A stretch of 61,102 bases of DNA, taken from positions 1-61,102 of the forward strand of contig JAADHS010000160.1 in NCBI GenBank assembly GCA_013151745.1. Reading direction: 5' to 3'. The stretch comes from Gammaproteobacteria bacterium. Lineage in GTDB: Bacteria > Pseudomonadota > Gammaproteobacteria > JAADHS01. Within the stretch, counting starts at the first letter, position 1. Each line of letters begins with the position of its first letter. The notes under the pieces were generated by a model that worked only from the letters and a program-made list of their open reading frames with translations, ran no database searches and was not told the origin of the DNA. Below, piece after piece: positions 10,617 through 52,081 of the stretch. The position numbers and the translations under genes were made by a program.

Positions 10617-10638
10617 AACTTTTTTCATGTTGTGAACT

Positions 10639-10675: not shown

Positions 10676-10765
10676 CGTCCCTAAATACACGCCATTCTCG
10701 TAGCGTTTAAAGTTTAGGTGTATATAATAGATGCTACGAATTGAAATTAAAGTTCGCGGTAAACA

Positions 10766-12460: not shown

Positions 12461-12544
12461 CTAGAAACAAAGCAACTGAATTCCGACAAGCTAATGATCG
12501 CCTGTGCTGCCTTATCGCCCATAAATACAATTAGGAATATAGTT

Positions 12545-31571: not shown

Positions 31572-32435
31572 ATGACATTTTCAGACTTTATAACTCAACA
31601 TGAAATAACGATTCGTTTAAGCTTTTTTTTCGGCGTTTTTGCTTTGATGGCGCTATGGGAAATCAAAGCACCACGACGAGCGTTGATCGTCTCCAAGGCA
31701 ATGCGCTGGGTCAACAACCTGGGTCTGGTCGTGTTGAACAGTATTATTTTACGCTTGCTTTTTCCGGCAGCGGCAATCGGCGTAGCCGCTTTTGCGACTG
31801 AGCACGGCTGGGGGCTATTCAATCATTTCAGGATTCCCATTCCCTTGGCCGTGGTGCTTTCTGTCATCGCGATGGATTTCATCATTTACCTGCAACATGT
31901 GCTGGTTCATGCTATCCCCACCCTGTGGCGGCTACATCGGGTACATCATGCTGACCTCGATTACGATGTCACCACCGGGGCACGCTTCCACCCCATCGAA
32001 ATTATTCTGTCGATGTTGATCAAATTTGCCACTATTGTAGTGTTGGGCGCACCCGTTGTCGCCGTCGTGATTTTTGAAGTGATATTGAATGCCATGGCCA
32101 TGTTTAATCATGGTAACGTGGGTCTGCCCTCGAAACTGGATCGCTTCATGCGACTCTTTGTTGTCACACCGGATATGCACCGAGTACATCACTCAACTGA
32201 GGACAACGAAACCAACAGTAACTTTGGTTTCAACCTCTCAATTTGGGATCGCCTCTTTGGCACTTACATTGCTCAGCCTCGCGCTGGCCACCTTAAAATG
32301 GACATCGGCATTCACTACTACCGAGACCCCAAACAAGTTTCCCAACTTCCGGGCATGTTGACTCTTCCCTTTGTTGGTAAAATCACAGGGTATGCCATTA
32401 ATCGACGTGAGTGGAAAAAACCAAACAAAAAATAA
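31572..32435 (+). CDS. Sterol desaturase / fatty-acid hydroxylase family membrane protein
   Basis: His boxes HVLVH, HRVHH, FNHGN, HRVHH; NSNFGFNLSIWDRLFGT. Confidence 0.9.
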   Translation: MTFSDFITQHEITIRLSFFFGVFALMALWEIKAPRRALIVSKAMRWVNNLGLVVLNSIILRLLFPAAAIGVAAFATEHGWGLFNHFRIPIPLAVVLSVIAMDFIIYLQHVLVHAIPTLWRLHRVHHADLDYDVTTGARFHPIEIILSMLIKFATIVVLGAPVVAVVIFEVILNAMAMFNHGNVGLPSKLDRFMRLFVVTPDMHRVHHSTEDNETNSNFGFNLSIWDRLFGTYIAQPRAGHLKMDIGIHYYRDPKQVSQLPGMLTLPFVGKITGYAINRREWKKPNKK

Positions 32436-32608
32436 TAAAAATTTATCTCCCCACATGGGTACAAAGTGTCGCTACCTCGGTATTGATTTTATGCGTCCCT
32501 GCCAAAAATCGCCTCGCTTACGTGACAACGGATCCTTTTTGCCCCAACCACGCCCTGCGTAACCCCCCATGTCAGCATACCTGTCGCTGGAAAAAGTGCC
32601 CTTGTGGG

Positions 32609-32640
32609 GTACATTCGCGTCCAACTGCGTTTTCTAGGTT
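32609..32640 (-). repeat. Dispersed intergenic repeat, copy 3 (left bracket of the nikR locus)
   Basis: 32610-32636 is the exact reverse complement of 41191-41217. Confidence 0.85.
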
Positions 32641-32806
32641 CATGATAGACAATGACACAAAAAAGGTCTGCATCTCTCTGCCTCCCGATTGGCTAATTTG
32701 ATGAAGCCATATTTGATGTTTTTTTGATTTTTTTATGATATTTCCTTGACCTTGCGTTTATTACACTGCTCGAATAATAAGTACAGTTAAACCTAGGAAA
32801 AATAGT

Positions 32807-33751
32807 ATGAAGTATCAGATATGTGAAAAATGGTTTTTACTCACTTGTCTTTTTATTTTTGGCTTACCATCCGTCGCTTTTGCCGATGCTACCGATGCGG
32901 CTGACGGTCACCACGGCGCTGAAAGCAGCATCGAAATCGAATATTTTAATACAGGTAACTCGAAGTCCAATATCGGAAATGCACAAGTTGAGACCTCTGG
33001 TGTGCTTATTCAGACTGAGTACGAAGCAAACAACAAAGTCTTTTCTTTTAATTACGAACGTTGGAATTACAACTGGACAAACCCGGAGAATCTTCCTTTT
33101 TTTTCCGGTATATCCAATGTTCCCTGGAGTACTTTCAATACACTACAATTTGGTTTTGCTTATGAGCAAGAAATAAAGGATAAATGGGAATTTAATTATT
33201 ATGCTGAAGCTGAATCTTCTTTTGAAAAAGAAAGAAGTGGGTCTAATGAATATGAAATAGGTGTCGATTTTATTTATGAGTCATCCGAAGTATGGACTTA
33301 TACACTAAATGTTAATTTGGAATATTTGGATGCAACAGGCGTAGAACCAGGAGTAGATTTAGAAATCGAATGGAATCACCATAAAAAAGAAGGTTGGTCA
33401 GGTGAGTTTGAAATAAGCAGTGAATTTCCAGAAACGAGTTTGACTTATCACTTCAGCAAAGCACTTTCGACCACTATGTTTTATAATGAAAGCGGCACTA
33501 ACACGATTAGGCTCTCTGACAGCAGCCCAGTGAGCGGCATGCAAGGTGGTTATTTCGAAGACGAGTATAACAGTCTTGGCATGCAACTTGACTATGAGTA
33601 TGCGTATGAAAGTTACGTGTCGTTTTCATTTCAGAAAAACACGGGAAGGAGACTTTCCTTTGTCGACAGCTCAGGGAAAGAAGAAACAGAAACGACATAC
33701 GAATTTGCTGATACTATCGAAGCCTCAATTGGGTTGTCATATACATTTTAA
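32807..33751 (+). CDS. Putative outer-membrane beta-barrel protein, acidic and AT-rich
   Basis: Signal peptide ending AFA-D, DGHHG near the mature N-terminus, amphipathic strands, C-terminal GLSYTF. Confidence 0.7.
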   Translation: MKYQICEKWFLLTCLFIFGLPSVAFADATDAADGHHGAESSIEIEYFNTGNSKSNIGNAQVETSGVLIQTEYEANNKVFSFNYERWNYNWTNPENLPFFSGISNVPWSTFNTLQFGFAYEQEIKDKWEFNYYAEAESSFEKERSGSNEYEIGVDFIYESSEVWTYTLNVNLEYLDATGVEPGVDLEIEWNHHKKEGWSGEFEISSEFPETSLTYHFSKALSTTMFYNESGTNTIRLSDSSPVSGMQGGYFEDEYNSLGMQLDYEYAYESYVSFSFQKNTGRRLSFVDSSGKEETETTYEFADTIEASIGLSYTF

Positions 33752-34027
33752 TCCGTCATTTTACCGAGTTGTTATCTCCTTTTTTACCCTAACAGTACTT
33801 TGACACCCATATAACATGGTACTGATACTGCCAAAGTATATGTGATTGCTTTTTGAGTCGGCTCATTGCTTTTCTCTTGTTTCTTCGTTGTGGGGAATGT
33901 GAACAGGTATCCGTTATGAGTTCTTCAACTGACAAAGCCGGGATGATAAAAGCAGAAGTTATTGCGTTCCCACTCCTGACATGGCACAGTTTAAAAATAC
34001 TATAAATCGTGTTTGGAGGTTGTTTAC

Positions 34028-34498
34028 ATGTCTGAGTTGGTCAGGTTCGGCGTTTCTATTGATCATGGCCTGTTGGATCAATTTGATAAACAAATTGCCC
34101 GTAAGGGGTATAAAAATCGTTCTGAGGCCATTCGGGATTTGATTCGTGACCATATGGTAGAACAGGAATGGGAAGCCAATACGGAGACCGTCGGCACCTT
34201 CACCATGGTCTACGATCATCACACTCGAGACCTTTCGCTAACCTTAACGCACCTTCAGCACTCCTTTGTTGGCGAGATTTGCTCCGTACTGCATGTTCAT
34301 CTTGATCATAATAACTGCCTTGAAGTATTAGTATTGAAAGGCAAAGCCCAGTTGCTGCAATCACTGGCCGACAAGCTGGTCAGTGTACGGGGCGTTAAGC
34401 ACGGCAAACTGACCATGACAACGACCGGGGAGGCCATGCCAAGCGGTCCGGGAGACCATAGCCATGCACACTCTGATGACGGGCACTCCCATTCCTAA
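34028..34498 (+). CDS. nikR: Nickel-responsive regulator NikR with His-rich tail
   Basis: RFGVS beta-strand, [39 protein letters not shown]; tail [14 protein letters not shown]. Confidence 0.95.
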
Positions 34499-34514
34499 AT
34501 GGAAGAGTGACAAT

Positions 34515-34555
34515 AAAAAAAGCCGAAGGGGTCGCTGACCCACTTCGACTTTTTT
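34515..34555. terminator. Bidirectional intrinsic terminator between nikR and the porin gene
   Basis: AAAAAAAGCCGAAGGGGTC-GCT-GACCCACTTCGACTTTTTT. Confidence 0.8.
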
Positions 34556-34608
34556 GCTGTTTCATGCACCTACCGAAGCAGTATGCATATATTTTTTTCA
34601 GGTCAAAC

Positions 34609-35646
34609 CTAGAAACCCACCTGGAACTGGGCTAATAAAACATTGTCGGTATAGCCGATGCTTTCAACAATACCTGTAAAGCTATCGGTATCGCCACTGG
34701 CGAACACATAGTTCAACTGAATACGCGCATCTTTCTGCTTTTTAGCCAGAAAAATATTCCAACCAAGGTAGGTATTGCCCAGGCTGGTACTATTGCCACT
34801 GGCTGTTTCGCTGTCAGCAGCATAGTGACGAAGAACAATTTCGTTCATTTTATTGACTGCGTAACCACCATGCACATACCAAACACTTTCGTCGTAATCT
34901 TTCTTGCCTTTTACATTACTACCAAAAATGTACTCCGCTTTAAACGTCATCGCACCCATTTTGTAGTAACCGGCCAGATCAAATACCGTGTAATCTTCTG
35001 CAGCGGATCCTGAGTCCTGGGTGCTGACACCATAGGAAGCCTCAATGTGCAGATCTTCGTTCATGTCATACATCACCCGACCCGCGTAGGCCGTACCGTC
35101 ACCGGCTTCCCCAAAGTCAACGGCACCCGAACGCTGGGCAGGGTTGAATACACCTACATCATAACCAAAGCCCCCCAGCTTGCGACCGCTCACCATCAAA
35201 CCAGCAGCACGATTTAACACCAAATACGATTCCAAACCCCGCTTGGTAATATCCAACTGCTTGCTGGCGTTGCCGAAGTCCATGCCAACAGGTGTTTTGA
35301 AAATACCGGCACTGATCTTGGCAGCATCATTAAATTTATAACCCACCACCGCATCTTGGATGATTTCAGGTATACCGATGCGGTCACCTTTATCGGTTTT
35401 ATTGAAATCCGCTTGCAGCTTGCCCCACACTTTGCCATGTGTAATTTGGTAGCCCAGACGGATACTATCAGCACCAAAACGTAAGCTATCTGCCGTATTC
35501 CCTTCCTTGCCCTTACCAACAGCAGCGGTAATTTGAGAATAACCAAAGAAGTTGGCTTTCGTGCTACTTTCATCAGCGGCACTCACCATCATCGGTGCGG
35601 CAACAACCGCTGCGGCTGCGGCCAGGGTAATCACATTTTTTTTCAT
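34609..35646 (-). CDS. Porin (OprO/OprP-like)
   Basis: Signal peptide; FFGYSQ, IQDAVVGY, AGIFKTPVG; C-terminal AQFQVGF. Confidence 0.75.
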   Translation of the reverse strand: MKKNVITLAAAAAVVAAPMMVSAADESSTKANFFGYSQITAAVGKGKEGNTADSLRFGADSIRLGYQITHGKVWGKLQADFNKTDKGDRIGIPEIIQDAVVGYKFNDAAKISAGIFKTPVGMDFGNASKQLDITKRGLESYLVLNRAAGLMVSGRKLGGFGYDVGVFNPAQRSGAVDFGEAGDGTAYAGRVMYDMNEDLHIEASYGVSTQDSGSAAEDYTVFDLAGYYKMGAMTFKAEYIFGSNVKGKKDYDESVWYVHGGYAVNKMNEIVLRHYAADSETASGNSTSLGNTYLGWNIFLAKKQKDARIQLNYVFASGDTDSFTGIVESIGYTDNVLLAQFQVGF

Positions 35647-35882
35647 GAAACAATTCTCCCCAATATTCGAATTATTTTAATTCAAAAACATACTTCAAGC
35701 ATCAAGATTATATTTATAGCAGTAATCGATGGAAATGCAACACTTTTAATCATTATGTTACAGAGATTTATACCTTTTTGTTGTTTTTACGCAACAATCA
35801 TGTAAAGCGTATTGTGCTCTTTATATGTTGGCGTAAGGTATAATACTTATTACAATAATACTTAACACAGGGAGCCATAAAA

Positions 35883-36944
35883 GTGAAAAGAAATCTAACG
35901 ACGCTGTCGATAGCCGTAGCGCTGGCAACACCTTTAACCGCTGGGGCAGTCGAAGTTGCCGGTGAAAAACTGGACATATACAGCAAAATTCATGTTTCGA
36001 TTGACTATAGCGACCAAGATGATCCTGATGTCAATAACGATGGCATGAGTATTTCCAGTAACTCCTCTCTCCTCGGCTTTAAAGGCAAGCTACCCTTGGA
36101 AAACGGAATGAAAGTCATTTGGCAAGTTGAGCAAGAAGTACGTTGGGACGACAGCTCCACGGGTAATTTTGCCAATCGTAACAGCTATGTCGGATTGGCC
36201 AGCGACGCGAACAGCCTTCGCGTTGGTGTCTATGACACCCCCTTCAAAACTGTGGCCTCAAAATGGGGGTTATTTGGCGACTCCGTCGGCGAACGTCGAG
36301 GCATGCTCGGTGCTGGTAATCAAAATGGTAATCAACTCAACGAGCGCGTCAAAAACTCGGTGATGTACCAGTTCGAAAATGAGACACTGAATATTCAAGC
36401 CATGTATGCCGTAGAACCAGAAGACACTTCCAATGCGGTTGATGATAACGACAAAGCGATGTTTGGCGCTGGCGTATGGTGGAAAATCAGCAGCCTCACA
36501 CTCTCTATGGCTTACGAAAATTGGAAAGAACACAGTGCAATCCGGGATGGCCAAGCTTTCCGTGTTGCCGCTGTCTACGGTCTCGGCGACCACCAGTTGG
36601 GAGGCATTTATGAGAACATCGACTCCGATACAGTTAACGAATGGCAACGTAACGCCTTCGGCGTAAACTGGAAATGGCAGTTTACGGGGCACACTGATGT
36701 TCGTGCTCAATACATGATGGTAGATGATGCCGACAATTCACCGAACACCGCTGCCAGCAAAATCGGTCTCGGCGTCTTTCACAAGCTGGACAAAAAGGCT
36801 GACGTTTACGTCGCGTATGCGATCACCGACAATGACGATAATGCCCAATTCCAAGCGGTCGATGGTGGTCACGGCAATGAAGTCAAAACGGTTAATGGGG
36901 GCACCCCTAGCTCCCTCTCTCTGGGAATGATCTACAAGCTCTAA
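35883..36944 (+). CDS. General Gram-negative porin
   Basis: Signal peptide; SNSSLLGFKG, WQVEQ, RNSYVGL, GVYDTPFK; C-terminal LGMIYKL. Confidence 0.88.
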   Translation: MKRNLTTLSIAVALATPLTAGAVEVAGEKLDIYSKIHVSIDYSDQDDPDVNNDGMSISSNSSLLGFKGKLPLENGMKVIWQVEQEVRWDDSSTGNFANRNSYVGLASDANSLRVGVYDTPFKTVASKWGLFGDSVGERRGMLGAGNQNGNQLNERVKNSVMYQFENETLNIQAMYAVEPEDTSNAVDDNDKAMFGAGVWWKISSLTLSMAYENWKEHSAIRDGQAFRVAAVYGLGDHQLGGIYENIDSDTVNEWQRNAFGVNWKWQFTGHTDVRAQYMMVDDADNSPNTAASKIGLGVFHKLDKKADVYVAYAITDNDDNAQFQAVDGGHGNEVKTVNGGTPSSLSLGMIYKL

Positions 36945-36971
36945 AAGACGATACGCATACGAGCTAGGTAC

Positions 36972-37009
36972 GGTGATGACCGGGGAAATATTTTTCCCCG
37001 GTCATCACC
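36972..37009. terminator. Perfect 17-bp hairpin between convergent genes
   Basis: GGTGATGACCGGGGAAA-TATT-TTTCCCCGGTCATCACC. Confidence 0.75.
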
Positions 37010-37154
37010 TGTTTTCTGAAACTGAATCGCTCTTATCTAGCCCGAAATTCTCACAGGGACACGTGAAAATCGCGCAGTAGATTGTTTTCACAATGGATAT
37101 GGTAAGCAAGAAGAATAGAGATAGAGGTCGTGTGAATCCGGTGAGAAATGCGGG

Positions 37155-37763
37155 CTAGTTAGCATCGCGTATAAACGCAGCCAACAACACAGCCGCATCT
37201 CGTATCGCTACAGCAAATTCGCGAGTGGCCTTATCGGATGAAGCCAGTTCGTCGGCTTTGGCGATTAATTCTTCTAGGGAAAGTCCGGCGTAATCTGCAA
37301 TCAGAGCCGTACCCACATTGCCCTCAAAATCCACCACATATTTTTCATTGACACTCAAAATGGCCGCCTGAGTAAGGCGATGATCTGCATCAATGCCCAC
37401 AGCAAACTCAAGATCACCATGACGATAATTTGTTTTACCCACATAAGCGGCTCCGACGATCACGTTGCTCTGTCTATCGGTGGCCCGGTAGTAGCTGTAA
37501 AGTTTGTCATCCAACTCGACACGGTAGGTTTTTTTCGCCCACTCGACTCCATCGGCTTTCAATGGCTGTTTACGCTTGACGATTTTGGCACCAGCGGGCA
37601 ACATTTCTTTGAGTGCTGCTTTTTTCTTTATAAAATCGACGGTCGATCCCGCATGACCTTTATGCGCCTGGACATTTTGTGACCCGATGGCGAGAGTGAG
37701 ACCCACGACCAACAAGGGAGCAAACAAATAAACAAGCGGACGATGAGTATAATTCAATTTCAT
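37155..37763 (-). CDS. Exported hypothetical protein, FMN-bind-like, mature N-terminus HKGH
   Basis: Signal ending VQA-H; RHGDLEFAVGIDAD..L...ILSVNE resembles FMN_bind domains; no [ST]GA[ST] motif. Confidence 0.55.
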   Translation of the reverse strand: MKLNYTHRPLVYLFAPLLVVGLTLAIGSQNVQAHKGHAGSTVDFIKKKAALKEMLPAGAKIVKRKQPLKADGVEWAKKTYRVELDDKLYSYYRATDRQSNVIVGAAYVGKTNYRHGDLEFAVGIDADHRLTQAAILSVNEKYVVDFEGNVGTALIADYAGLSLEELIAKADELASSDKATREFAVAIRDAAVLLAAFIRDAN

Positions 37764-37795
37764 TTTAATTCCTTATATTAATGGTAATAGCGCAG

Positions 37796-38431
37796 CTAAT
37801 TTTGCTCTGCTGACTTCATCAGCCACAGCTCCCATAACACTCGGAATGAGATGAAAGCAAAGCAAAGCCCTATGGTCGTGCCCATGGCGACGGTCAGATA
37901 AGCAAAACTACCCGAAACAAAACGCACTAAATTGAGGCTGATAATATCGCCCCATAAACCGAAAAACAACAGTGTAACGACGAGAGCTTTAATCGTTTCT
38001 GTCAATTGTGTGAGACAAACAAGTCCCCCCATGGCCAGCAAAAGCAAAGCAAACGACAACAGATGAACATGAGAAACCTGCGCCAGAATTTGCGGCGGCA
38101 GCGTATCATCGCCACTCATTCCCGCACCATGATCCATCTTGGACATATCCATTTGCGAGTGATCCATTCCCTCCATACTCATTTCGCCTTCATCGTCGAA
38201 AGAAAATTCTTCTTCGGCAAAGCCTTGCTCGGCGATCGCGGTCGCCTCAGTACTGGAAAGGCTTTTATCGGCATAATGATCGGCAATGGCTTGTGGACTC
38301 ATACCGACGGACAACGCGGCATTAAACACCGCAGCTAAATAACCACTCCCCAAAATAATAATAAAACCACTGATTAAGATTTTCCATGAAAAAGACACCT
38401 TGGCAAAGTTAAATGCGCTGAGCATCATCAT
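37796..38431 (-). CDS. Integral membrane protein with Met/His/acidic loop and SHVHL motif
   Basis: About 4 TM segments; MSMEGMDHSQMDMSKMDHGAGM loop. Confidence 0.75.
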   Translation of the reverse strand: MMMLSAFNFAKVSFSWKILISGFIIILGSGYLAAVFNAALSVGMSPQAIADHYADKSLSSTEATAIAEQGFAEEEFSFDDEGEMSMEGMDHSQMDMSKMDHGAGMSGDDTLPPQILAQVSHVHLLSFALLLLAMGGLVCLTQLTETIKALVVTLLFFGLWGDIISLNLVRFVSGSFAYLTVAMGTTIGLCFAFISFRVLWELWLMKSAEQN

Positions 38432-38432
38432 C

Positions 38433-39239
38433 TTACTCTCCTAAATCGTGGGTTTTAACCCAAAGCACCGCACCCAGCTCAACAGGATAATTTTTTTCTT
38501 CATGACTCATCGTCTCTCCACTTTCAACCAGCGCGGCCATTCCCCACCAACCCGCTTTTGGCATAACATAAGCAAACACGCCATTGGCATCTGTTTTAAT
38601 AACTTGAGTGATAAAGGGATCAGCAGGTGCTTTAAGGTCACCCTTTTCATTATAATACTCAACCTCTACACGAGCAAAAGCCACCGGTTTGCCATTGTGT
38701 TTGACCACGCCACGAAACAAATTATTCGTCCACAGCCCATAGGGTCTGGCCAAGGGGATGATTTCCATGGGTAGACCCAGTTCATGATCCCAGCCTTCTT
38801 CCATGCCAAAGGCATTCACTACTGTTTTGGTGTAATGGATGATAAAGCGCTCTTCCGCAGCCTCCCAATATGGCTGAGGTTCAACGAAAAAAAGATGATC
38901 GCCGGGCTTGCGAATTTTATAACTGCTTTGATAAGCAGACAAGGTATCGCCGGCATGATCCTGATAGCTTGTCTGTTGCAGCTTGTCCAGTAAATCAGTC
39001 TCTTTTCCGGCCACCCAAACGCCAAAGCGTTTGGGTTTTTTCATATTGAGCCCCATACCTTCAAAGGGATGGGTAAAAATCAAATCAAGACGAAGCTCAC
39101 GACTTTCGCCTGCAGAAACAATTTCATCTGAAGGAATAATCATTTGAAAATGAGCGTAAGCGGGTGCAAACACACCCACCATACCGATCATCAATAGTAG
39201 CTTGCTCAAAAATCGTTTACACCACAACGTACTTGTCAT
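38433..39239 (-). CDS. DUF4198 family periplasmic protein, typically linked to Ni/Co transport
   Basis: AYA-HFQMIIPS, FTHPFEG, PYWEAAEERFIIHYTK, EIIPLARPYGL, GWWGMAAL. Confidence 0.85.
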   Translation of the reverse strand: MTSTLWCKRFLSKLLLMIGMVGVFAPAYAHFQMIIPSDEIVSAGESRELRLDLIFTHPFEGMGLNMKKPKRFGVWVAGKETDLLDKLQQTSYQDHAGDTLSAYQSSYKIRKPGDHLFFVEPQPYWEAAEERFIIHYTKTVVNAFGMEEGWDHELGLPMEIIPLARPYGLWTNNLFRGVVKHNGKPVAFARVEVEYYNEKGDLKAPADPFITQVIKTDANGVFAYVMPKAGWWGMAALVESGETMSHEEKNYPVELGAVLWVKTHDLGE

Positions 39240-39257
39240 AACACTCTCCTGTATGCC

Positions 39258-40292
39258 TTACAGAGCCGTACTCCAGCCCATACTCCAGCGATATTTTTCG
39301 TCGTTAGAGATGCCCGTTAGTTCTTGGTAGATAGGGAATGAAACATTGGCGTAAACACCCTGTTTCTTGTTAATTTTGAAATTAAGACCGGGCGAGAGAT
39401 AAATCACATCACCACCACTGTTTTTCTTAATTTCATCGTTCTCAATATCTTGTTCGAAGAATATACCATTTAACTCAATGACCGGCACAATTGAACTGTG
39501 ATGAGCAAAGCTCGTTGCCACATCAAACTGCCAGGAATTACCTGCACGAAATTGTTTGGCACCCTGAGTACCAAAACGATAGATTATATCCGCATCTAAA
39601 GCAATTTTTTTCGTGAGATGGCCACTATAGGCCACGCCACCTTGAAAGGTAATCGCACCACTACCGGGTTGGTTATGTGTACCAATGATCTCACTTTTGC
39701 CTGTTCCCTTGTTTATGTCCGTTTCATTTGTAATCTTGCCGGTAGGCAGAATGACACCGAACACAGAGGCCCACTGATTGTCGCCATCGTTGAAAAAGCG
39801 ATAGCGGCCTGTGACCAACATATCACCGAACCCTGGAGACTCTGAGGTAGAAGAGACACAATTGGCCGAACCAAGATCGCCCTTAACCGCCGGGTTACCA
39901 GCAAAACACTCGCTCGCATTTTGATCGCCGTTATCTTTAAAGCCTTTAAAATTGTTGTATTGCAGCATGATATTGATATCCATATCTTCATTGACCGGAA
40001 AGCCAAACGAAAGAAAATAGGCATCCTCACTAGAGTGCATATGTACATCTTCACCATCGGCTCTGAAATCTATCAACTGCTGATCGCTGAACGTTTCATA
40101 ACGACGCGCATCCCAGCGTAAACCAATTACTTTTTCTTCAAGAATGGCCGCACCCACCGAATTGATACTGCCAGAGCCCCCACCGCGAATCGATTCACCA
40201 TGAGCGTGAGCTAATGACATGCCTCCCAGTAGCAGGGGAAGACTTGCTGTGGTCAGTAATGACATTTTACGTAATAATTTGTGTCTGGACAT
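39258..40292 (-). CDS. Putative outer-membrane barrel ('transporter' / MetA-pathway-like)
   Basis: Signal AHA-HGES; GFGDMLVTGRYRF, GVILPTG, QPGSG, YLSPGL, FPIYQ; DVHMH motif. Confidence 0.75.
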   Translation of the reverse strand: MSRHKLLRKMSLLTTASLPLLLGGMSLAHAHGESIRGGGSGSINSVGAAILEEKVIGLRWDARRYETFSDQQLIDFRADGEDVHMHSSEDAYFLSFGFPVNEDMDINIMLQYNNFKGFKDNGDQNASECFAGNPAVKGDLGSANCVSSTSESPGFGDMLVTGRYRFFNDGDNQWASVFGVILPTGKITNETDINKGTGKSEIIGTHNQPGSGAITFQGGVAYSGHLTKKIALDADIIYRFGTQGAKQFRAGNSWQFDVATSFAHHSSIVPVIELNGIFFEQDIENDEIKKNSGGDVIYLSPGLNFKINKKQGVYANVSFPIYQELTGISNDEKYRWSMGWSTAL

Positions 40293-40325
40293 TTTGAACT
40301 CGACTCCCTAATGCTTTAAGTTTAA

Positions 40326-40511
40326 TTATTCGTGGTGACCATCATCATGTTGATGACTATGCTCAATTTCCTCGTGACTATGCTCGTGTTCATGCTCTTC
40401 TGTGACATCCCCATCATGAACATGAGTATGATGTCCGTCATCGTGACGATGGACATGGGTGTGAGTCACCTGACGGTGGATATGCCGATGATAAGTTACA
40501 TCACATGCCAT
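40326..40511 (-). CDS. 61-aa His-rich metal-binding protein (20 His)
   Basis: CAGGA RBS; (HX)n runs and two HDDGHH motifs; first gene of the operon. Confidence 0.75.
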   Translation of the reverse strand: MACDVTYHRHIHRQVTHTHVHRHDDGHHTHVHDGDVTEEHEHEHSHEEIEHSHQHDDGHHE

Positions 40512-40655
40512 CTGATTTTATCCTGCTTGAATATTAAAAAACCGAAAGGAGAATGGACATCTCGAACCTTATCGGCGTAACAATGAAAAAAGCAACAGCT
40601 TTTCTAGTACTTAATTTTCAGCTAAAAGCTTTATTTGCAAAACCAATTACCGCAA

Positions 40656-40714
40656 GTAGCATGATTTAGAGAATCATAGCACCGACCGTGCTACGATGTC
40701 AACACTCGTGCTAC
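40656..40714. promoter_or_regulatory. Candidate NikR operators overlapping a leftward sigma70 promoter
   Basis: GTAGCAT-N13-ATAGCAC-N5-GTGCTAC-N13-GTGCTAC; minus-strand TTGACA (40697-702), N18, TATGAT (40673-78) with extended TG. Confidence 0.7.
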
Positions 40715-40753
40715 TTTACCTGGGAAAATACGTTTTCCAAACTAAAGCTTCAC

Positions 40754-40783
40754 TTGAAATGGCCGTTAGTGAATCTGTATATT
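40754..40783 (+). promoter_or_regulatory. Candidate sigma70 promoter for the 88-aa His-rich gene
   Basis: TTGAAA-N18-TATATT. Confidence 0.45.
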
Positions 40784-40837
40784 CGACAACGGGGTTATCA
40801 AACTTCAATCTAAAAAACAATCAAGGAAACTTTGACT

Positions 40838-41104
40838 ATGGAAGGTAAGCACCAACATTCACATACCCACGAACATCAACACTCACATCAACATGAGCAT
40901 GTACATACGCACGAAGATGGCACTCAGCACAGTCACGGCCATGAACATAACCATGCGCACGCACATGGCCATGAACATGCGCATCAGCATAACCACGCGG
41001 CAGACAGCAATGAACATGACCATCAACATGAGGAAAGTGAACTAGAAGATCATGAGCACAACCACCCCGGCCATGAAAATGAATCCCACGATCATAGCCA
41101 TTAA
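40838..41104 (+). CDS. 88-aa His-rich protein (33 His), Hpn-like metal-storage candidate
   Basis: AAGGA RBS; runs of 11 and 12 alternating His joined by EDGTQ; downstream hairpin near 41125-41155. Confidence 0.85.
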   Translation: MEGKHQHSHTHEHQHSHQHEHVHTHEDGTQHSHGHEHNHAHAHGHEHAHQHNHAADSNEHDHQHEESELEDHEHNHPGHENESHDHSH

Positions 41105-41188
41105 AAAACCTACATAAACAAACACTCAGGCGTGTCTACGCAGTGCATGCCTGAGGTTAGTACCCTCTCAACAAAACGATAGATTAAT

Positions 41189-41225
41189 CTTAGAAAACGC
41201 AGTTGGACGCGAATGTAGAGTGCAA
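41189..41225 (+). repeat. Dispersed intergenic repeat, copy 4 (right bracket of the nikR locus)
   Basis: TAGAAAACGCAGTTGGACGCGAATGTAGAGTGCAA. Confidence 0.85.
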
Positions 41226-41295
41226 GTCGGATACGCACTAAAGAAGCAGTTATCAGTCAGGGCGTAATAAATTTTTTATTTTTACTCAGGCTAAA

Positions 41296-43761
41296 TCAAC
41301 GCCATTGAGATTCTGCCAACCACTTATCAAACTCATCGACTGGTAAAGGTCGACTGATGAAATATCCCTGCACCAAATCACACCCCAACTCAGCCAAGCG
41401 GTCATAACTTTCTTTATTTTCCACACCTTCCGCAATGACTTGCAAGCCAATATTGTGCGCCAAATCTATTATGGAACGCACAATGACCGCATCGTTGTCA
41501 TTGCTAAACATACCCATGACAAACCCCTTATCTATTTTTATTTCTTTCACAGGTAATTGTTTCAGATAGGCAAGAGAGGAATATCCCGTTCCAAAGTCAT
41601 CGATAGATAAATCAATGTTCATATCATTCAGATGCACCAACACCCCTTCCGCTCTTGCAGGATCGGCCATAATAGCTGTTTCGGTAATTTCGAACCAAAG
41701 CTTGCATTCGGCCCGCCCTAAATTACTCACAATATTAGAAACACGTCGAGGAAAGTCGCTATCCTGAAGGTTTCGCACCGATAGATTAATGGCCATATCA
41801 ACATGGATGCCTGCTTCGTACCATGTGCTTAGCTGCATCAAAGCACGCTTCAACACCCATAACGTCAGAGGCAAAATCAAACCACTTTGCTCAGCAAAAG
41901 GGATAAATGAATCCGGCAACATCAAACCTCGCTTAGGATGCTGCCAACGAACCAGGGCTTCAACACCCATCAAACGTCCAGATTGTAAACTTACTTTAGG
42001 TTGAAAATACAAGACGAGTTGATTTTGCTCTATGGCCTCTCTCAAATCACCCAATAGAGCCAAACTACTCGGTTTGTGCTCATCTTTTGCGGGGTCGTAA
42101 ATAGAAAAACCTTGAGCTGCGCGCTTGGCAACATACATTGCAACATCAGCCATTCTCAGCAATGTCATTTCATCCTTTGCATGCTCCGGATAAAGTGCCG
42201 CACCAATACTCCCACCCACATGTAACAATTGATCATCGATAAGAAATGCATTTTCCAATGAAAACAGCATTTTTTTAGCCACTTTTTCTGCATGTTCTAT
42301 ATCAGAAGAAGGCAATAACACAGCAAACTCATCGCCGCCCAAGCGGGCAATGGTATCGGACTCACGCAAAGTTTCTCGCATTCGAACAGCAACTTGCTGC
42401 AACACCACATCACCATAGTGATGTCCCAAAGTATCATTAATTTCTTTGAAGTGATCCAGATCCATTAACAATAAACTAAACTGCTCACCGGATCTCTGCG
42501 CCAATAAAACAGTCTGCTTTAATCGGTCCGTCAATAAGGTACGGTTAGGCAAACCCGTCAAGCTGTCATGCAATGCGGCATGCTCCATGATCGCCATTTG
42601 ACGCTTTCGTTCCGTAATGTCCCTGATCACACCAACAAAATAACGCCCATCATCAAGCAACATTTCACTGACACTCAACTCAATAGGAAAAATAGTACCA
42701 TCTTTTTTTAAGCCCTCCAGTTCACGAGCCGGTAGACCAATTATTTTCGGCTCCCCTTCATTCACATAAGCATTTACCGGTTTTTCATGGTGAGCAGCAT
42801 AAGGTTCCGGCATCAATACTTCAATCGACGCCCCAAATAATTCTTCATATTGATAACCAAAGGTCTGCAATGCAGCAGGATTAACTGATTCTATCTTACC
42901 CTGCTCATCCATAATTAAAATTCCTTCAAGTACACTATCCATGACGGCACTAACCCGGACTTCACTCTGCCGAATATGCTTTTGCATTTCGTTAAAACGT
43001 GCAGCTAACCTGCCTAATTCATCTTTTCGGTCAACCAATAGAAGAACTTCCCGGTCCCCTTCTGCAACGCTGGATATAGCGGTGAAAAGTTCAGACAACG
43101 GATCTAACACACTCCATCGAAAAATAAAAAAGAGTGCACTACCCAAGATTGAAACTAGGACGAAGGCAATAATCCACAAGTTGCGCTGTAACTGCGTGAT
43201 GCGTGCTGCTCTCGTTTCTGTGGAAATTGAAAGTTTCAGTACCCCTCTCAGACTAGCGCTTTCATAACCATGGCATGACAAACATGCGGTATCAGCCTTA
43301 ATCGGCATAAGCACCGTTATTTCATCGTTATCACCTAAGTTAAAAGAGGTGTTGCCACGCAGAGCCTGCTGAAAAAAATCGGCATCCGCTATTTGTATCT
43401 GTTGGAGAGGGGAAGGGGTTCGCTCAAATATGGGAATACTCAAGAATTCGTTAACGGCATTAACCGTTGATAAATCTGTGAAGGCTTCATTACCATCACG
43501 TCTGTAAATTTTAATATCCGCAATACCCTCGGCCTTGCCCATTCTATCCAGCCACTGGCGTGCGAGCGTACCTTGGCCATTGAGCATCAGCGTTTGTAAA
43601 CTGGCAAGCAACGTCTTGGCATGAACTTCTGCCTGATCAATTTCTTCTTGATAAATAGTATTGACCAACTGCTTCTGGATCCAAAACCCAGCCACCAACA
43701 TCAGCATAAACAAAACAGCCGACATCAATAAAGCCAAGCGCGTTCCCAGACTATTCATCAC
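41296..43761 (-). CDS. Membrane c-di-GMP cyclase/phosphodiesterase with periplasmic heme-c, HAMP, PAS, GGDEF and EAL domains
   Basis: Two TMs flanking CLSCH; DELGRLA; MPEPYAAHH PAS; RLGGDEF; EALVRW and DDFGTGYSS. Confidence 0.93.
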   Translation of the reverse strand: MMNSLGTRLALLMSAVLFMLMLVAGFWIQKQLVNTIYQEEIDQAEVHAKTLLASLQTLMLNGQGTLARQWLDRMGKAEGIADIKIYRRDGNEAFTDLSTVNAVNEFLSIPIFERTPSPLQQIQIADADFFQQALRGNTSFNLGDNDEITVLMPIKADTACLSCHGYESASLRGVLKLSISTETRAARITQLQRNLWIIAFVLVSILGSALFFIFRWSVLDPLSELFTAISSVAEGDREVLLLVDRKDELGRLAARFNEMQKHIRQSEVRVSAVMDSVLEGILIMDEQGKIESVNPAALQTFGYQYEELFGASIEVLMPEPYAAHHEKPVNAYVNEGEPKIIGLPARELEGLKKDGTIFPIELSVSEMLLDDGRYFVGVIRDITERKRQMAIMEHAALHDSLTGLPNRTLLTDRLKQTVLLAQRSGEQFSLLLMDLDHFKEINDTLGHHYGDVVLQQVAVRMRETLRESDTIARLGGDEFAVLLPSSDIEHAEKVAKKMLFSLENAFLIDDQLLHVGGSIGAALYPEHAKDEMTLLRMADVAMYVAKRAAQGFSIYDPAKDEHKPSSLALLGDLREAIEQNQLVLYFQPKVSLQSGRLMGVEALVRWQHPKRGLMLPDSFIPFAEQSGLILPLTLWVLKRALMQLSTWYEAGIHVDMAINLSVRNLQDSDFPRRVSNIVSNLGRAECKLWFEITETAIMADPARAEGVLVHLNDMNIDLSIDDFGTGYSSLAYLKQLPVKEIKIDKGFVMGMFSNDNDAVIVRSIIDLAHNIGLQVIAEGVENKESYDRLAELGCDLVQGYFISRPLPVDEFDKWLAESQWR

Positions 43762-46344: not shown

Positions 46345-46656
46345 CTAGAGGAAAGTTCGAAGGTAAGCAACAACATCATCCATCTCATCACGAGTCAGAA
46401 TCCCCTGAAAAGCAGGCATGATTTCTTTACCTTGCTCGATAATGTCAAGCAAATCCCTGTTCGGTTTGAATAAACCCTGACCTCGGGTAAAATCCGGTAC
46501 ACTCGGCATCGTCCCCCGCCCGTCATTACCATGACAGGTCGTACAGTGACGACTGTATATTTGTCCACCATTGGCAGAATCAGCAGCATAAGTCACGCCA
46601 CTCAATAACAAACCCACAAGAAACATCGCGACGACACCCTGTCTTTTTTTAATCAT
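46345..46656 (-). CDS. Small monoheme c-type cytochrome
   Basis: Signal peptide, CTTCH, distal IMPAF; start moved to 46656. Confidence 0.9.
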   Translation of the reverse strand: MIKKRQGVVAMFLVGLLLSGVTYAADSANGGQIYSRHCTTCHGNDGRGTMPSVPDFTRGQGLFKPNRDLLDIIEQGKEIMPAFQGILTRDEMDDVVAYLRTFL

Positions 46657-46681
46657 GATTTCACTCCGAGTTTTTTCTGCC

Positions 46682-47245
46682 TTATTCAAGTTTATTAATT
46701 TCTTGTGTGATTTGATCAACCATGGTGCGCGTATGCCAAACTTGCTCGCCCACATAACGTGCAATTAAACGGCCATTCTTATCAATTAAAAAGGTATGTG
46801 GATAAGCCACAATGCCCAGCTTTTCATTCGCTTCTAGCCCGTCAATGTCGACATAATTATTGTAAGTCACCCCTTGGTCAGACAAATACTCCTGAACCAG
46901 GTCAACATCATGATCAATAGACAGGCCAACCACTGCAAAAGCATGTTCTTTTAGAATTTGCTCTAACTTTTCCAAACTCGGCAATTCTTTGCGACAGGGT
47001 GGACACCAGGTCGCCCAAAGATTCAAGAGCACAACTTTATCCTGTAGTCGTGCATTCAGCGATATCGGCTCTCCCTGCAATGTGCTCACGCTTAGCTCAG
47101 GAAAAGAGGTGCCTAGCGTGAGGCTATCAGGTGCCAGCTCTGATTGTTCACAGCCGCCCAACAACACACTAGCCATCAGCATCAATAACAGCTGGGTCTG
47201 TCTTTTTTTAAAACCTGAACTCTGCTTATGGCACCACATTGTCAA
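46682..47245 (-). CDS. TlpA-family thiol:disulfide oxidoreductase, probable lipoprotein
   Basis: LLGGC lipobox; NLWATWCPPCRKELP; start uncertain. Confidence 0.9.
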   Translation of the reverse strand: MTMWCHKQSSGFKKRQTQLLLMLMASVLLGGCEQSELAPDSLTLGTSFPELSVSTLQGEPISLNARLQDKVVLLNLWATWCPPCRKELPSLEKLEQILKEHAFAVVGLSIDHDVDLVQEYLSDQGVTYNNYVDIDGLEANEKLGIVAYPHTFLIDKNGRLIARYVGEQVWHTRTMVDQITQEINKLE

Positions 47246-48521
47246 TCATAATATTCAGCCCGACCTGGCCCACATCAATCACGGCCGTTGTGCCTTCGAA
47301 ATCACCACTTTGAGCGATGGCATCGCCTGACCTGGATATCCGGGCACTCACAATAATTTGCGGATAATCAGCCAGCGACATGCCCGACATCATCGCCATT
47401 TTTTCATCTAGAGTAAATTCATATGGCAAATCTTGCGCTTGTTTTTTCACTATCGCTAATGGCATACGCGGCCCGTCCACTGCACGCGCATAAATAAAAA
47501 CGGTATCAGTCGGTGAAATTTGTTCTTGATACTCTGGGTCAACTCGTACTGTACCCGAGACGAAAGTCGGGCCTTTTATCACCGCAGCGACCCGTTCTTC
47601 TTCTGGCGGAATAGCACGACCCTCTGCCCTGAGTCGCGCCTCTATCTCGGCTATATTGGTCTCCATTGTATTCGCTTCTTGCGAACCGGGCTGAACGATA
47701 TTTTTCAGTCTACGCCAATAAGACAAAGCAAGCTCATAATCACCCCGTTCATAATGATACGTTCCAGCCAGCCACAAAGATTGAACATTAACCGGGTTTA
47801 ACTCCAATGATTTTCGAATTAAACGCATAGGTCGACCATCCAGACTACCTTCTGCTGCCATGGCAAGCGTATCGGCAAAATCAGCAAGCAGTTGCGGATT
47901 TGTTTCAACCAACGGCATCGCTTTTTCAAACGCGATAACCGCATCAGCGTGTTTTTGTTGAAAGCGGTAAGAACGCGCCAACATCAACCAGCCTTCGATA
48001 TCATCAGGATTTTCTTCTAAACTCGCTGCCAACTGGTTCACCATCGCTTCAACCTGGGCACCGGTATCCGGATGTTCCACTGAAGCACTACCTGTATCGG
48101 AACCTTCTCCAGCTACCGCTACAACCGGAGGAACACCCGTCACCGCCGTTGGACTGCCTAACTCCATATAGAGTAAAATAGAACACAAGGGAATAAGCAC
48201 AGCCAAAGCAATCACTAATGGGCGGCCACTCGGCTCTGTTGTTGTCTGAGTGGTCGACCCACTGGCATTTTTTTTTGCACCCTCCACATCTTGCAAGAGA
48301 CGACGTTCAATTTCATGCTTCGTGCGCTCATAATATTCAAGGGTAATAGCACCATTTTGATTGTCGCGTTCCAGTTCAGCGAGCTGATCTTTATATATTG
48401 ATACGTTCAGTTCATCATGTTCAATGACTTTATCAGCCACCCTCTTGGACAACAAAGGCGGCAATACAAACAGCATTGCGGCAACAAAAAGACTAGCCGC
48501 AATAATCCAAAAAACAACCAT
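47226..48521 (-). CDS. ccmI: Cytochrome c biogenesis protein CcmI/CycH
   Basis: NVSIYKDQLAELE, EIERRLL, TPRs (GWLMLARSY), GPRMPLA...ARISRSG. Confidence 0.93.
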   Translation of the reverse strand: MVVFWIIAASLFVAAMLFVLPPLLSKRVADKVIEHDELNVSIYKDQLAELERDNQNGAITLEYYERTKHEIERRLLQDVEGAKKNASGSTTQTTTEPSGRPLVIALAVLIPLCSILLYMELGSPTAVTGVPPVVAVAGEGSDTGSASVEHPDTGAQVEAMVNQLAASLEENPDDIEGWLMLARSYRFQQKHADAVIAFEKAMPLVETNPQLLADFADTLAMAAEGSLDGRPMRLIRKSLELNPVNVQSLWLAGTYHYERGDYELALSYWRRLKNIVQPGSQEANTMETNIAEIEARLRAEGRAIPPEEERVAAVIKGPTFVSGTVRVDPEYQEQISPTDTVFIYARAVDGPRMPLAIVKKQAQDLPYEFTLDEKMAMMSGMSLADYPQIIVSARISRSGDAIAQSGDFEGTTAVIDVGQVGLNIMIDNVVP

Positions 48522-48524
48522 AAC

Positions 48525-49004
48525 CTACTTCTCCCCCGCCTCTTTATTAAGTAGAGCGGATACTCTGACCTGATCTTCCTTAGATAAGGGAGTCATATCA
48601 TCAATCACATTATCTTTTGTACGTGCTAAATTTTTGTATAGTAAAGCCAGCGCACCAAAGAATAATAAAGCCGGACCTAACCAAAGTGCTAAAGTAGAAA
48701 GCTTAAAAGCAGGTCGGTATCTTACAAAATCGCCGTAACGCTCTTCCATATAGCTCACTATTTCAGTTTCACCTTTTCCTTCTTCCACCATTTCACGAAC
48801 CTGTCGTCGTAAGTCAACGGCCACCCCAGCATCCGAGTCGGCTATAGTCTGGTTTTGACAAACCAGACAACGCAGCTCTTTAGAGATCTCCATGACCTGG
48901 GCTTCAACAACGGGATCCTCAGCCATGGGCGTCGCTTCTTTAGCCAAGCTATCCGTAACCCCAATTGCCAATAAAATAATAACCAGGCTAAAAAAGCGCA
49001 TCAC
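48525..49004 (-). CDS. ccmH: Cytochrome c biogenesis protein CcmH
   Basis: LRCLVCQNQ, RYGDFVRY. Confidence 0.95.
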   Translation of the reverse strand: MMRFFSLVIILLAIGVTDSLAKEATPMAEDPVVEAQVMEISKELRCLVCQNQTIADSDAGVAVDLRRQVREMVEEGKGETEIVSYMEERYGDFVRYRPAFKLSTLALWLGPALLFFGALALLYKNLARTKDNVIDDMTPLSKEDQVRVSALLNKEAGEK

Positions 49005-49546
49005 CCCTGCAACTCCTTGATTTTTGGAATAATAATTTTTTCTAAATCCTGGTACGTAACCGGACCGATATGCTTGTATTGAATGATGCCATTTTTATCA
49101 ATAATAAACGTTTCCGGCGCACCATAAACACCCCAGTCAATAGCCACACGACCCTCATAATCAAATGCAATATAAGTATAGGGATCCCCACCATGTGTAC
49201 GCAACCACAGCTGTCCGTCTTTACGCTCATCTTTATAGTTAAGCCCAACGATCGCCACAAAATTGCGCTTGGCTAATTCTATAAAAGCAGGATGCTCAAT
49301 ACGACACGAAGGACACCACGACGCCCAAACATTAAACAACCATACTTTTCCCTTCATCTGGCTCGTAGAAAAAGTTGCGTTGGCATCGTGCAGTGTAGGC
49401 AGCTCAAATACCGGCGCTGCTTTACCAATCAAAGGTGAGGGTACTTCTGAAGGCTTCAGAGATAACCCCCTATATAAAAAACCAGCCAAAATCAAAAACA
49501 GAGCCAAAGGCAACAAATAACGAAGAGAACGAAAAAAACGAGCCAT
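49001..49546 (-). CDS. ccmG: Thiol:disulfide interchange protein CcmG/DsbE
   Basis: WASWCPSCRIEHP, GLNYKD, GVYGAPET. Confidence 0.95.
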   Translation of the reverse strand: MARFFRSLRYLLPLALFLILAGFLYRGLSLKPSEVPSPLIGKAAPVFELPTLHDANATFSTSQMKGKVWLFNVWASWCPSCRIEHPAFIELAKRNFVAIVGLNYKDERKDGQLWLRTHGGDPYTYIAFDYEGRVAIDWGVYGAPETFIIDKNGIIQYKHIGPVTYQDLEKIIIPKIKELQG

Positions 49547-49550
49547 AATA

Positions 49551-51569: not shown

Positions 51570-51604
51570 AGCACTCTCCTTGGAGTCTATTTTATAATGA
51601 CTAA

Positions 51605-52081
51605 TTAATTAGCTATTAAAGTCGTCGTGGTTGATTTGCTATCATTTTCAGCTTTTGCCTGCTGGCCTTTTTCCAACGCTTCTGCTACTTCAGGCGGCAT
51701 ATAGGTCTCGTCATGCTTGGCTAAGACTTCCTCCGCCCGAAACAGATTACTCGATTCCAGACGACCTTGTGTTACCACACCCTGCCCCTCACGAAACAAA
51801 TCGGGGAGAATGCCAACAAACACCACCGGCATATCAACTGCGTGATCCGTTACAATAAAGTTAACGGTCAAGCCATCGTCTTGACGTTCGATACTCCCCT
51901 CTTTCACCAAACCGCCTAAACGAAAGGGTCGATCAACAGGCGCTTCATTCGCCATGACCTGAGTCGGACTAAAAAAGAAAACCATATTACTTTGAAACGC
52001 ATTTAATACAAGCGCGGCAGCGATACCTATACCGGCTACGCCCCCCACAATAAATGCAATTTTTTTATACCTGCGCTTCAT
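51605..52081 (-). CDS. ccmE: Heme chaperone CcmE
   Basis: GILPDLFREGQG, LAKHDETY. Confidence 0.97.
   Translation of the reverse strand: MKRRYKKIAFIVGGVAGIGIAAALVLNAFQSNMVFFFSPTQVMANEAPVDRPFRLGGLVKEGSIERQDDGLTVNFIVTDHAVDMPVVFVGILPDLFREGQGVVTQGRLESSNLFRAEEVLAKHDETYMPPEVAEALEKGQQAKAENDSKSTTTTLIAN

Follow-up and report, generated by a model that had tools for sequence, protein, structure and literature searches.

What can a nickel-responsive repressor control where no nickel permease gene lies near its own? The question is raised by a locus (positions 32,641 to 41,188) on contig JAADHS010000160.1 of a Gammaproteobacteria bacterium (assembly GCA_013151745.1), a stretch of 61,102 nucleotides which we refer to, at its full length, as the window. 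The locus holds nikR, four genes for outer-membrane (OM) β-barrels, one of them in a tight five-gene operon on the minus strand, and a gene for a histidine-rich peptide divergent from that operon; a first-pass annotation took it for a self-contained route of metal uptake. Our analysis leads elsewhere: the minus operon (40511->37155) and the divergent gene are probably the NikR-repressed, detached outer and periplasmic half of a split nickel importer of the energy-coupling factor (ECF) type, NikK-L-M-Q-O, to which two proteins of the operon, here called TM211 and FMNl202, would add new accessory parts.

The operon comprises, in order of transcription, the open reading frame (ORF) for His61, a His-rich peptide of 61 aa (40326-40511); the gene of a 344-aa MetA-type OM β-barrel, the proposed OM channel (39258-40292; Phenol_MetA_deg, PF13557, 43.8 bits against a cut-off of 22); that of a 268-aa NikK-type periplasmic metal-binding protein of the DUF4198 family (38433-39239; PF10670, 210.9 bits against a cut-off of 34); that of TM211, an inner-membrane protein of 211 aa with four transmembrane (TM) segments, labelled PF27139 (Aq_1264_TM; 37796-38431); and that of FMNl202, an exported 202-aa protein whose structural model has an FMN_bind-like fold (37155-37763). 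On the plus strand, facing away, is the second His-rich ORF, His90, of 88 aa when read from ATG 40838 (40838-41104; listed from TTG 40832). Checked against the window's ORF list, nikR, the four barrel genes, the operon and the divergent gene all lie where the first-pass annotation had put them, and the distances between the operon genes, recomputed, are 33, 18, 1 and 32 nt, as it had given them. What it made of the operon's products also holds: by prediction they are a channel for the outer membrane, metal-binding proteins of the periplasm, a small protein of the inner membrane and peptides rich in His.

The regulator itself is clearly recognizable. The product of nikR (34028-34498, plus strand), a nickel-responsive ribbon-helix-helix repressor, scores 107.1 bits with NikR_C (cut-off 22), 26.9 bits with RHH_1 (cut-off 20.5) and 204 bits with NF003381 (cut-off 105). 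The ORF list starts it at TTG 34013, but the ATG at 34028, which GGAGG precedes, appears the likelier start. The best solved relative is NikR of Pyrococcus horikoshii (2bj1, E 4.3e-45), with whose segment lqh...lhvhmdehnc the stretch LQH...HVHxDxxNC aligns, keeping the His, the His-x-His and the Cys that are the high-affinity Ni ligands in E. coli NikR. Beyond the region that aligns to solved NikR structures the protein carries a His-rich C-terminal tail (34445-34498).

Family scans with Pfam and NCBIfam covered the ten genes of the locus and ten flanking ORFs of the 61-kb window. None of the ten locus genes matches a family of Ni/Co permeases, ABC transporters or TonB-dependent receptors, so that the reported lack of a canonical nickel permease (0/10 genes) holds for the locus. 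TM211, FMNl202, His61, His90 and the barrel protein OMB314 (see below) pass with no family in the local libraries; the PF27139 label of TM211 is precomputed, with no score behind it.

The locus is without a permease, but the genome has one. On contig C228 of the same assembly (292 contigs, 95.6% complete) are genes for CbiM (148 bits), CbiQ (110.8 bits) and an ABC_tran ATPase (104.9 bits), the M, Q and O components of an ECF transporter. Upstream of cbiM is a gene of 234 aa (L001:2546-3250, minus strand), called NikL-like only from its position and from the N-terminal signal and C-terminal TM segment of its product, which has no Pfam match. With Rfam no B12 or NiCo riboswitch was found at this nikL-like/cbiMQO locus (the only row, a snoRNA, is a chance one). 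Either a NikR site or the lack of a B12 riboswitch would speak for nickel rather than cobalt as the substrate; the riboswitch is lacking, and so is a NikR-type box upstream of these genes. The self-contained route proposed in place of a canonical permease thus shares its genome with a nikL-like/cbiM/cbiQ/cbiO transporter and, in that form, is not supported. Where nikMNQO, NiCoT and hupE had been named as the genes to look for in the rest of the genome, the outcome is divided: neither NiCoT nor HupE/UreJ was found in the 95.6%-complete genome, but cbiM, cbiQ and cbiO are there. The DUF4198 gene of the window is the only one in the genome. As for what might need the nickel, a urease alpha subunit is encoded on contig C142 and no [NiFe] hydrogenase large subunit was found in the genome; a search for Ni-SOD gave no match in any control genome either, and is uninformative.

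Is the operon under nickel control? The best promoter-like site within 32400-41300 is its own, a sigma-70-type TTGACA-N18-TATGAT with TG extension (40702->40673, minus strand; 11/12 matches). Spanning it are four NikR-type half-site boxes (40656-40714), which read [GTAGCAT-N13-ATAGCAC]-N5-[GTGCTAC-N13-GTGCTAC] on the plus strand and GTAGCAC-N13-GTAGCAC-N5-GTGCTAT-N13-ATGCTAC on the operon strand, and which overlap both the -35 and the -10. Half-site word and spacing equal those of the signal that comparative genomics predicts for NikR, GTGTTAC-[N13/14]-GTAACAC (PMC545781, Table 4), a reversed form of which is predicted in the same source upstream of the separately located nikK of Desulfovibrio vulgaris. 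The perfect double box occurs nowhere else in the 3.70-Mb genome and in none of 100 shuffles of the window; the five other double boxes of the genome, each with one mismatch, are inside or beside unrelated ORFs. In the related loci described below, double boxes with at most one mismatch number 19 in 381 kb, spread over 12 of 27 loci, as against 6 in the organism's own 3.7 Mb, and nine orthologous promoters (window, L003, L004, L007, L008, L009, L010, L013 and L021) share the arrangement box / -35 / box / box(-10) / box. To judge from this conserved, operator-like four-box element, the operon is very likely regulated by Ni through NikR, which sustains for the minus operon the earlier proposal that the locus responds to metal.

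The transcript would begin with a leader of about 155 nt. Just upstream of the His61 start it contains a terminator-like hairpin with a T-run (40536-40575, minus strand), and a second hairpin with T-run is seen at 40586-40605 (minus strand); the leaders of L003 and L010 have a similar one. These hairpins could be an attenuator. As a whole the leader folds no better than its shuffles (z -0.14), and Rfam gave no match in window positions 32000-41500. His90 has a promoter-like site of its own (40754-40783). In one of the related loci a second NikR-type double-box pair, accompanied by a TTGA -35-like element, lies at the end of the contig, immediately downstream of FMNl202 (L010:10495-10553), suggesting that another NikR-controlled gene lies past that end.

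To see in what company these genes travel, we scanned one genome per species with an alignment of TM211 and searched the resulting stretches by tblastn with the proteins of the window and of C228. The 28 stretches obtained amount to 27 distinct loci: L015 and L021 are two contigs of one metagenome-assembled genome (MAG), between which a single TM211 gene is divided (residues 1-125 and 82-211), and were counted once. The sources of the loci are all MAGs, with the labels Gammaproteobacteria/Chromatiaceae/Tenderia, Nitrospirota/Nitrospira or Leptospirillia. The cluster does, then, recur, as a check on its conservation had required: FMNl202 is next after TM211 in 22/27 loci (it is absent from L017-L020 and L026); a DUF4198 gene is in the cluster in 17/27, directly upstream of TM211 in 11, upstream of nik genes in 4 and as a distant copy (31% identity) in 2; the MetA-type barrel is present in 11/27 and nikR in 5/27.

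The pump genes are often there as well. In 9/27 loci (L017-L020, L022, L025-L028) cbiM, cbiQ and cbiO lie directly upstream of TM211, the cbiO ORF ending less than about 50 nt from the TM211 start in L022, L025 and L028; and in L022, L025, L027 and L028 the order is DUF4198-(NikL)-CbiM-CbiQ-CbiO-TM211-FMNl202. From this order in four loci it follows that the operon of the window is the same gene set, with its pump moved elsewhere. Constant company of ECF or ABC permeases was what the first-pass annotation had named as refuting its proposal; the homologues keep such company in nine loci, hence in part and not always. In L014, L025, L027 and L028 an OprB-family porin takes the place of the barrel, in L009, L012 and L029 a MetA-like barrel does, and such non-orthologous replacement in one slot argues for a dedicated OM step.

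Co-occurrence across genomes points the same way. Of the 27 genomes with the module, 20 yielded CbiM, L015 but not L021 being entered in this count. In an even sample of the class (401 genomes), 11, belonging to 7 families and as kin not independent, have a full-length TM211 orthologue; 9 of these 11 have CbiM, whereas of the other 390 it is present in 114 when the Pfam cut-off is applied and in 27 under E<=1e-38, a limit chosen after the gap in the scores had been seen.

A further common feature is the mature N-terminus: once the predicted signal peptide is cleaved off (at |), His is the first residue of each exported protein in the module. The MetA barrel starts AHA|HGESIRGGG, with AxA|HGESIRGGG in 10/10 orthologues; the DUF4198 protein starts AYA|HFQMIIPSD, with A|HFQM kept in 15/15; and FMNl202 has A|HKGH in 27/27 aligned members. 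The proteins that stand in for or accompany these elsewhere share it, the OprB-type porins of L014 and L027 starting A|HED..., the MetA-like barrels of L009, L012 and L029 A|HHGG, and the DUF3347 proteins of L009 and L029 A|HPGH. The NikL-like protein on C228 also starts with His (AQA|HKLNMF).

For the DUF4198 family a role for this residue is documented: IsDUF4198 binds Ni through its N-terminal His with a Kd of 18 nM and is not stabilised by Cu, according to the main account of that protein, which also reports NikR_C regulators among the neighbours of the family (PMC12537917). The window protein has both the domain and the export signal by which NikK is known, and in the window is not adjacent to nikM, nikQ or nikO. 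It has no sequence match to any PDB chain, and we infer Ni as its metal solely from the regulation of the operon. Members of the family also figure in the 1,500 PepSY-like flavinylation clusters of one survey (bioRxiv 10.1101/2021.01.07.425746).

Put together, these data suggest the following sequence of events. When Ni is scarce, NikR would leave the four-box operator over the -35 and -10, and the operon would be transcribed. Ni(II) would then cross the outer membrane through the MetA-family barrel, be captured by the DUF4198/NikK protein and be handed over, at the inner membrane, to NikM of the C228 nikL-like/cbiM/cbiQ/cbiO transporter for ATP-driven import. TM211 and FMNl202, as a conserved pair, might serve as a periplasm-facing station for metal hand-over or selectivity at the membrane, rather than as a permease. 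In the cytoplasm the His-rich peptides may buffer Ni for urease: neither has a signal peptide, His61 having 20 His in 61 aa, with tblastn homologues in L003 and L010, and His90 33 His in 88 aa, with homologues in L003, L013, L021 and L027.

Several observations weigh against this split-importer reading. CbiM was not found in 7/27 of the module-holding MAGs nor in 2/11 of the sampled genomes with full-length TM211, all of these being MAGs or draft assemblies. No NikR-type box lies ahead of nikL-like/cbiMQO on C228, so that coordinated regulation of the two halves lacks support. With up to two mismatches allowed, the window has 2 double-box matches where 0.83 are expected, a number equalled in 22/100 shuffles and not significant as a count; both lie side by side in the operon promoter. 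The N13-spaced boxes of the window are direct repeats, whereas the published predicted signal is an inverted one, and the inverted form GTAACAC-N13-GTGTTAT is seen in L008 and L013 only. A Met-rich loop such as that of TM211 is untypical for Ni(II). Copper proteins recur nearby: in L017-L020 a convergent gene for a CopA-type P1B ATPase with two HMA domains adjoins TM211 (about 10570-13130, minus strand), with CPC, YN and MxxSS motifs typical of such ATPases; a small CopZ-like HMA gene follows FMNl202 in L025 (11319-11564), L027, L028 and L030; and a DUF3347 protein is encoded in the clusters of L009 and L029. Finally, the metal of DUF4198 proteins need not be Ni, since the member Zcp is described as serving Zn instead (PMC12663993).

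What, then, are TM211 and FMNl202? The PF27139 label belongs to the window's own TM211 and to 97/100 of its matches, and the Atlas clusters concerned are 95-100% PF27139; we found no published literature on the Aq_1264_TM family. Among 25 orthologues, H52, Y53, E73, D79, D109, Q118, H121, H123, C139, D162 and R170 are invariant. In the AF2 model (pLDDT 73.8) four long helices are seen, and residues 70-108 are disordered. The loop between TM1 and TM2 is acidic and rich in Met and His, and by the positive-inside rule would be periplasmic; the conserved polar residues appear in the model to cluster toward the periplasmic half of the four-helix bundle, with only C139 at the cytoplasmic end. A fold search returned helical-bundle rows only, with Z no higher than 11.6, led by the MAPEG protein 4bpm (11.6) and styrene oxide isomerase 8pnu (11.5), the latter a heme-binding membrane protein. 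For helical bundles Z becomes meaningful only at about 13, and these scores are within noise. Longer, fused forms of TM211 were sought and none found, which is weak evidence. Distant paralogues of 250-290 aa, matching the last 100 or so residues of TM211, occur in about 34/400 sampled Gammaproteobacteria; six of their neighbourhoods (L044-L049; genomes G108, G411, G361, G180, G268 and G226) have no metal theme in common, and in L044 the paralogue adjoins a cytochrome bd oxidase. In another genome (G281:C15:2593-2864) only short TM211 fragments are seen, in separate small frames (profile positions 119-161 and 157-209), which may be a decayed copy.

The family of FMNl202 is rare: among 1.84 billion, E<=1e-3 is reached by 68 representatives and E<=1e-30 by 29. 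In the alignment A33, H34, G36, H37 and Y113-R114-H115-G116 are invariant in 27/27 members, and H-x-G-H persists in more distant ones, to about E 1e-30; after predicted cleavage the protein starts at His34 (AQA|HKGH). Its AF2 model (pLDDT 84.3) has as top Foldseek rows RnfG (8rb9_G, E 1.2e-3) and NqrC, with E from 1.2e-3 to 0.1 and TM about 0.3, which is borderline. By sequence no Pfam family is matched at E<=0.1, FMN_bind included, and the NCBIfam match to RnfG is weak (E 0.014; 15 bits, cut-off 230). The flavinylation motif [S/T]GA[S/T] (SGAT) is not kept: the corresponding stretch reads S-D-K-A/P-T/S, with K178 invariant.

That the two proteins work together is suggested by their adjacency in 22/27 loci, and complex prediction lends this weak support: the pair scores 0.40 against 0.00 for the best of three controls, the runs agreeing in at least 50% of contacts and the partner having pLDDT of at least 84. 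In calibration 58/80 solved complexes and 2/110 mismatched pairs reached the mark, and scores of 0.60 or less included only 7 of the 80 solved complexes and both of the passing mismatches. The published descriptions of NikK/DUF4198 systems consulted here mention no component like TM211 or FMNl202; neighbours of this kind may already be listed among the DUF4198 neighbourhoods of Supplementary Fig. 2 (PMC12537917) or in the additional files to PMC2667541.

A bolder form of the split-importer reading can be built on this pair. TM211 and FMNl202 would be a new two-protein metal station at the inner membrane and, with the barrel, NikK and the NikL-like protein, form a relay of N-terminal His sites that passes Ni from the outer membrane to NikM, the pair being the step that tells it from Cu; at its boldest, TM211 would be a small Ni permease in its own right. 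Discrimination between Ni and Cu by the pair would explain why CopA and CopZ genes recur as neighbours. We consider this extension rather unlikely as it stands.

The self-contained route deserves weighing in its general form too, with Ni passing from OM barrel to periplasmic chaperones, through TM211 as permease and on to a His-rich buffer, independently of any ECF or ABC pump. In the window and in most of its closer relatives the operon does stand without nik permease genes, the C228 nikLMQO genes lack a NikR-type box, CbiM went undetected in the 7/27 and 2/11 genomes mentioned, and polar residues in the helices of TM211 (H121, H123, C139 and D162) are invariant. But the conserved polar residues would lie mostly in the periplasmic half of a small bundle, with C139 alone at the cytoplasmic end; the CbiM-less genomes are MAGs or drafts; co-occurrence with CbiM is otherwise strong (9/11 as against 27-114/390); and in the nine loci where TM211 shares a gene string with nikM-Q-O a second permease would be redundant. 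Since a pump is present in this genome, and in the same gene string as the module in other lineages, a permease-free route is unlikely.

A copper role for TM211 and FMNl202 is kept alive by the CopA- and CopZ-like neighbours, the Met-rich loop and the DUF4198 member that serves Zn. The pair would resemble CopC/CopD, an N-terminal-His chaperone with a Met-rich membrane partner, guarding nickel sites or clearing Cu that enters with Ni. The TM211 loop, MSMEGMDHSQMDMSKMDHGAGM, is like the Met/His repeats of copper-resistance proteins, and TM211 has a weak match to NCBIfam CopI (E 0.038); the two-HMA ATPase genes of L017-L020, the CopZ-like genes of L025, L027, L028 and L030 and the DUF3347 genes of L009 and L029 are the neighbours in question; and an N-terminal His is a classical site for Cu(II). 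Against this stand the NikR-type boxes at the operon promoter, found likewise before the clusters of L009, L025, L027 and L028, and the embedding of the pair in nik operons. The CopA genes are convergent and so do not share a transcript with TM211; by Pfam and NCBIfam the locus genes of the window include neither a copper regulator nor a copper enzyme; and IsDUF4198, as described, is not stabilised by Cu (PMC12537917). We judge it improbable that the pair handles copper.

That TM211 and FMNl202 make up a small redox unit, in which a four-TM protein bearing heme or metal works with a flavin-type periplasmic domain, is very unlikely: the RnfG and NqrC folds nearest to FMNl202, the styrene oxide isomerase row of TM211 (8pnu, Z 11.5) and the DUF4198 genes of flavinylation clusters speak for it, but FMNl202 has no Pfam FMN_bind match at E<=0.1 and reads S-D-K-A-T at the SGAT position, an invariant Lys replacing the Gly, the Z score is under the level meaningful for helical bundles, and the locus has no ApbE, PepSY or DUF2271 gene by Pfam and NCBIfam.

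How much of the rest of the locus belongs with the split-importer module? To the left of the operon, beyond a perfect 17-bp inverted repeat that is a likely terminator (36972-37009) between a convergent porin gene and the last operon gene, are that porin gene (35883-36944, plus strand; Porin_4, 127 bits), a second one of Porin_4 / Porin_O_P type (34609-35646, minus strand; Pfam), nikR, and the gene of OMB314, a predicted OM β-barrel of 314 aa (32807-33751, plus strand) with a signal peptide and the C-terminus ...SYTF. OMB314 has no match in Pfam or NCBIfam; an ESM-Atlas lead connects it to DUF6268/OMP β-barrel clusters (score 0.98), and by tblastn over the 27 loci it is syntenic solely in the closest relative, L003. 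No NikR-type box was found ahead of the porins, OMB314 or nikR, the intergenic region 35647-35882 included. In the related locus L013, within the compared stretch L013:10755-12281, a fatty-acid hydroxylase gene directly follows FMNl202, whereas its copy in the window (31572-32435) lies on the far side of the block OMB314-nikR-porin-porin (within 32436-37154). That adjacency in L013 makes the block lineage-specific: by gene order it would be an insertion in the lineage of the window and L003, or else a loss in L013. With no boxes at the porins, OMB314 or nikR, and with the block absent from L013, these genes are candidate members of the system at most.

The ten flanking ORFs scanned, the three longest of the window among them, have housekeeping or signalling roles (adenylate cyclase, ValRS, PepA, Ccm, a GGDEF-EAL protein). 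An ordinary cytochrome c maturation cluster (CcmF, CcmH/CycH; 46345-52081, minus strand) lies downstream of the GGDEF-EAL and propeller genes.

Why might such a module matter? How nickel gets through the outer membrane and across the periplasm where no TonB-dependent receptor serves it is poorly understood, and so is its separation from Cu and Zn before it reaches an ECF importer. The locus offers a compact, NikR-boxed set, consisting of a non-TonB barrel, NikK, a rare exported HxGH protein and an Aq_1264_TM membrane protein, which recurs in uncultured sulfur-oxidising Gammaproteobacteria, Nitrospirota and Leptospirillia, beside nikMQO or apart from it. If the split-importer reading is right, it would provide the first functional context for PF27139 and for an unnamed family of about 30-70 sequence clusters, and would extend the theme of His at the N-terminus after the signal peptide from single proteins to a whole pathway.

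Set beside known systems, the module borrows from several and coincides with none. The closest solved folds to FMNl202 are the FMN_bind domains of RnfG and NqrC (Foldseek E 1.2e-3, TM 0.31), but its HKGH and YRHG motifs have no counterpart there, the flavinylation motif is lost and Pfam gives no match. CopC-CopD and YcnI-YcnJ likewise pair a periplasmic N-terminal-His protein with a membrane partner; no relation of sequence or fold to them was found, and regulation and neighbours here point to nickel. Hpn and Hpn-like of Helicobacter pylori are small cytoplasmic peptides of about 60-90 aa, at least one third His, which His61 and His90 resemble by composition only. Helicobacter FrpB4 and FecA3 reportedly carry out TonB-dependent nickel uptake across the outer membrane under NikR regulation; an OM uptake step under NikR control, predicted here, would be common to both, but the barrels of our loci are MetA- or OprB-type, with no TonB-dependent receptor domain, and passage through them would be passive or binding-driven. 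With IsDUF4198 (Ni; PMC12537917) and Zcp (Zn; PMC12663993), as those accounts present them, the window protein shares the Pfam family DUF4198, periplasmic location and a mature N-terminal His; the metal varies within the family, and the window protein differs in matching no PDB chain by sequence. The nearest parallel is with the NikKMLQO and Nik(MN)QO transporters (PMC545781; PMC2667541): common to both are the DUF4198/NikK protein, a NikL-like protein with CbiM, CbiQ and an ABC ATPase in the genome, and NikR-type GTnnnAC half-sites spaced N13. Separation of nikK from nikMQO has itself been described, in D. vulgaris (PMC545781) and in Ca. Electrothrix gigas. Here, unlike there, the detached nikK operon adds a non-TonB OM barrel, His-rich ORFs, TM211 and FMNl202, the last two not being among the described components M, N, K, L, Q and O, and carries four operator-like boxes rather than two, with none ahead of nikLMQO. 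Most likely, then, the locus extends a known uptake system rather than providing a new, permease-free route.

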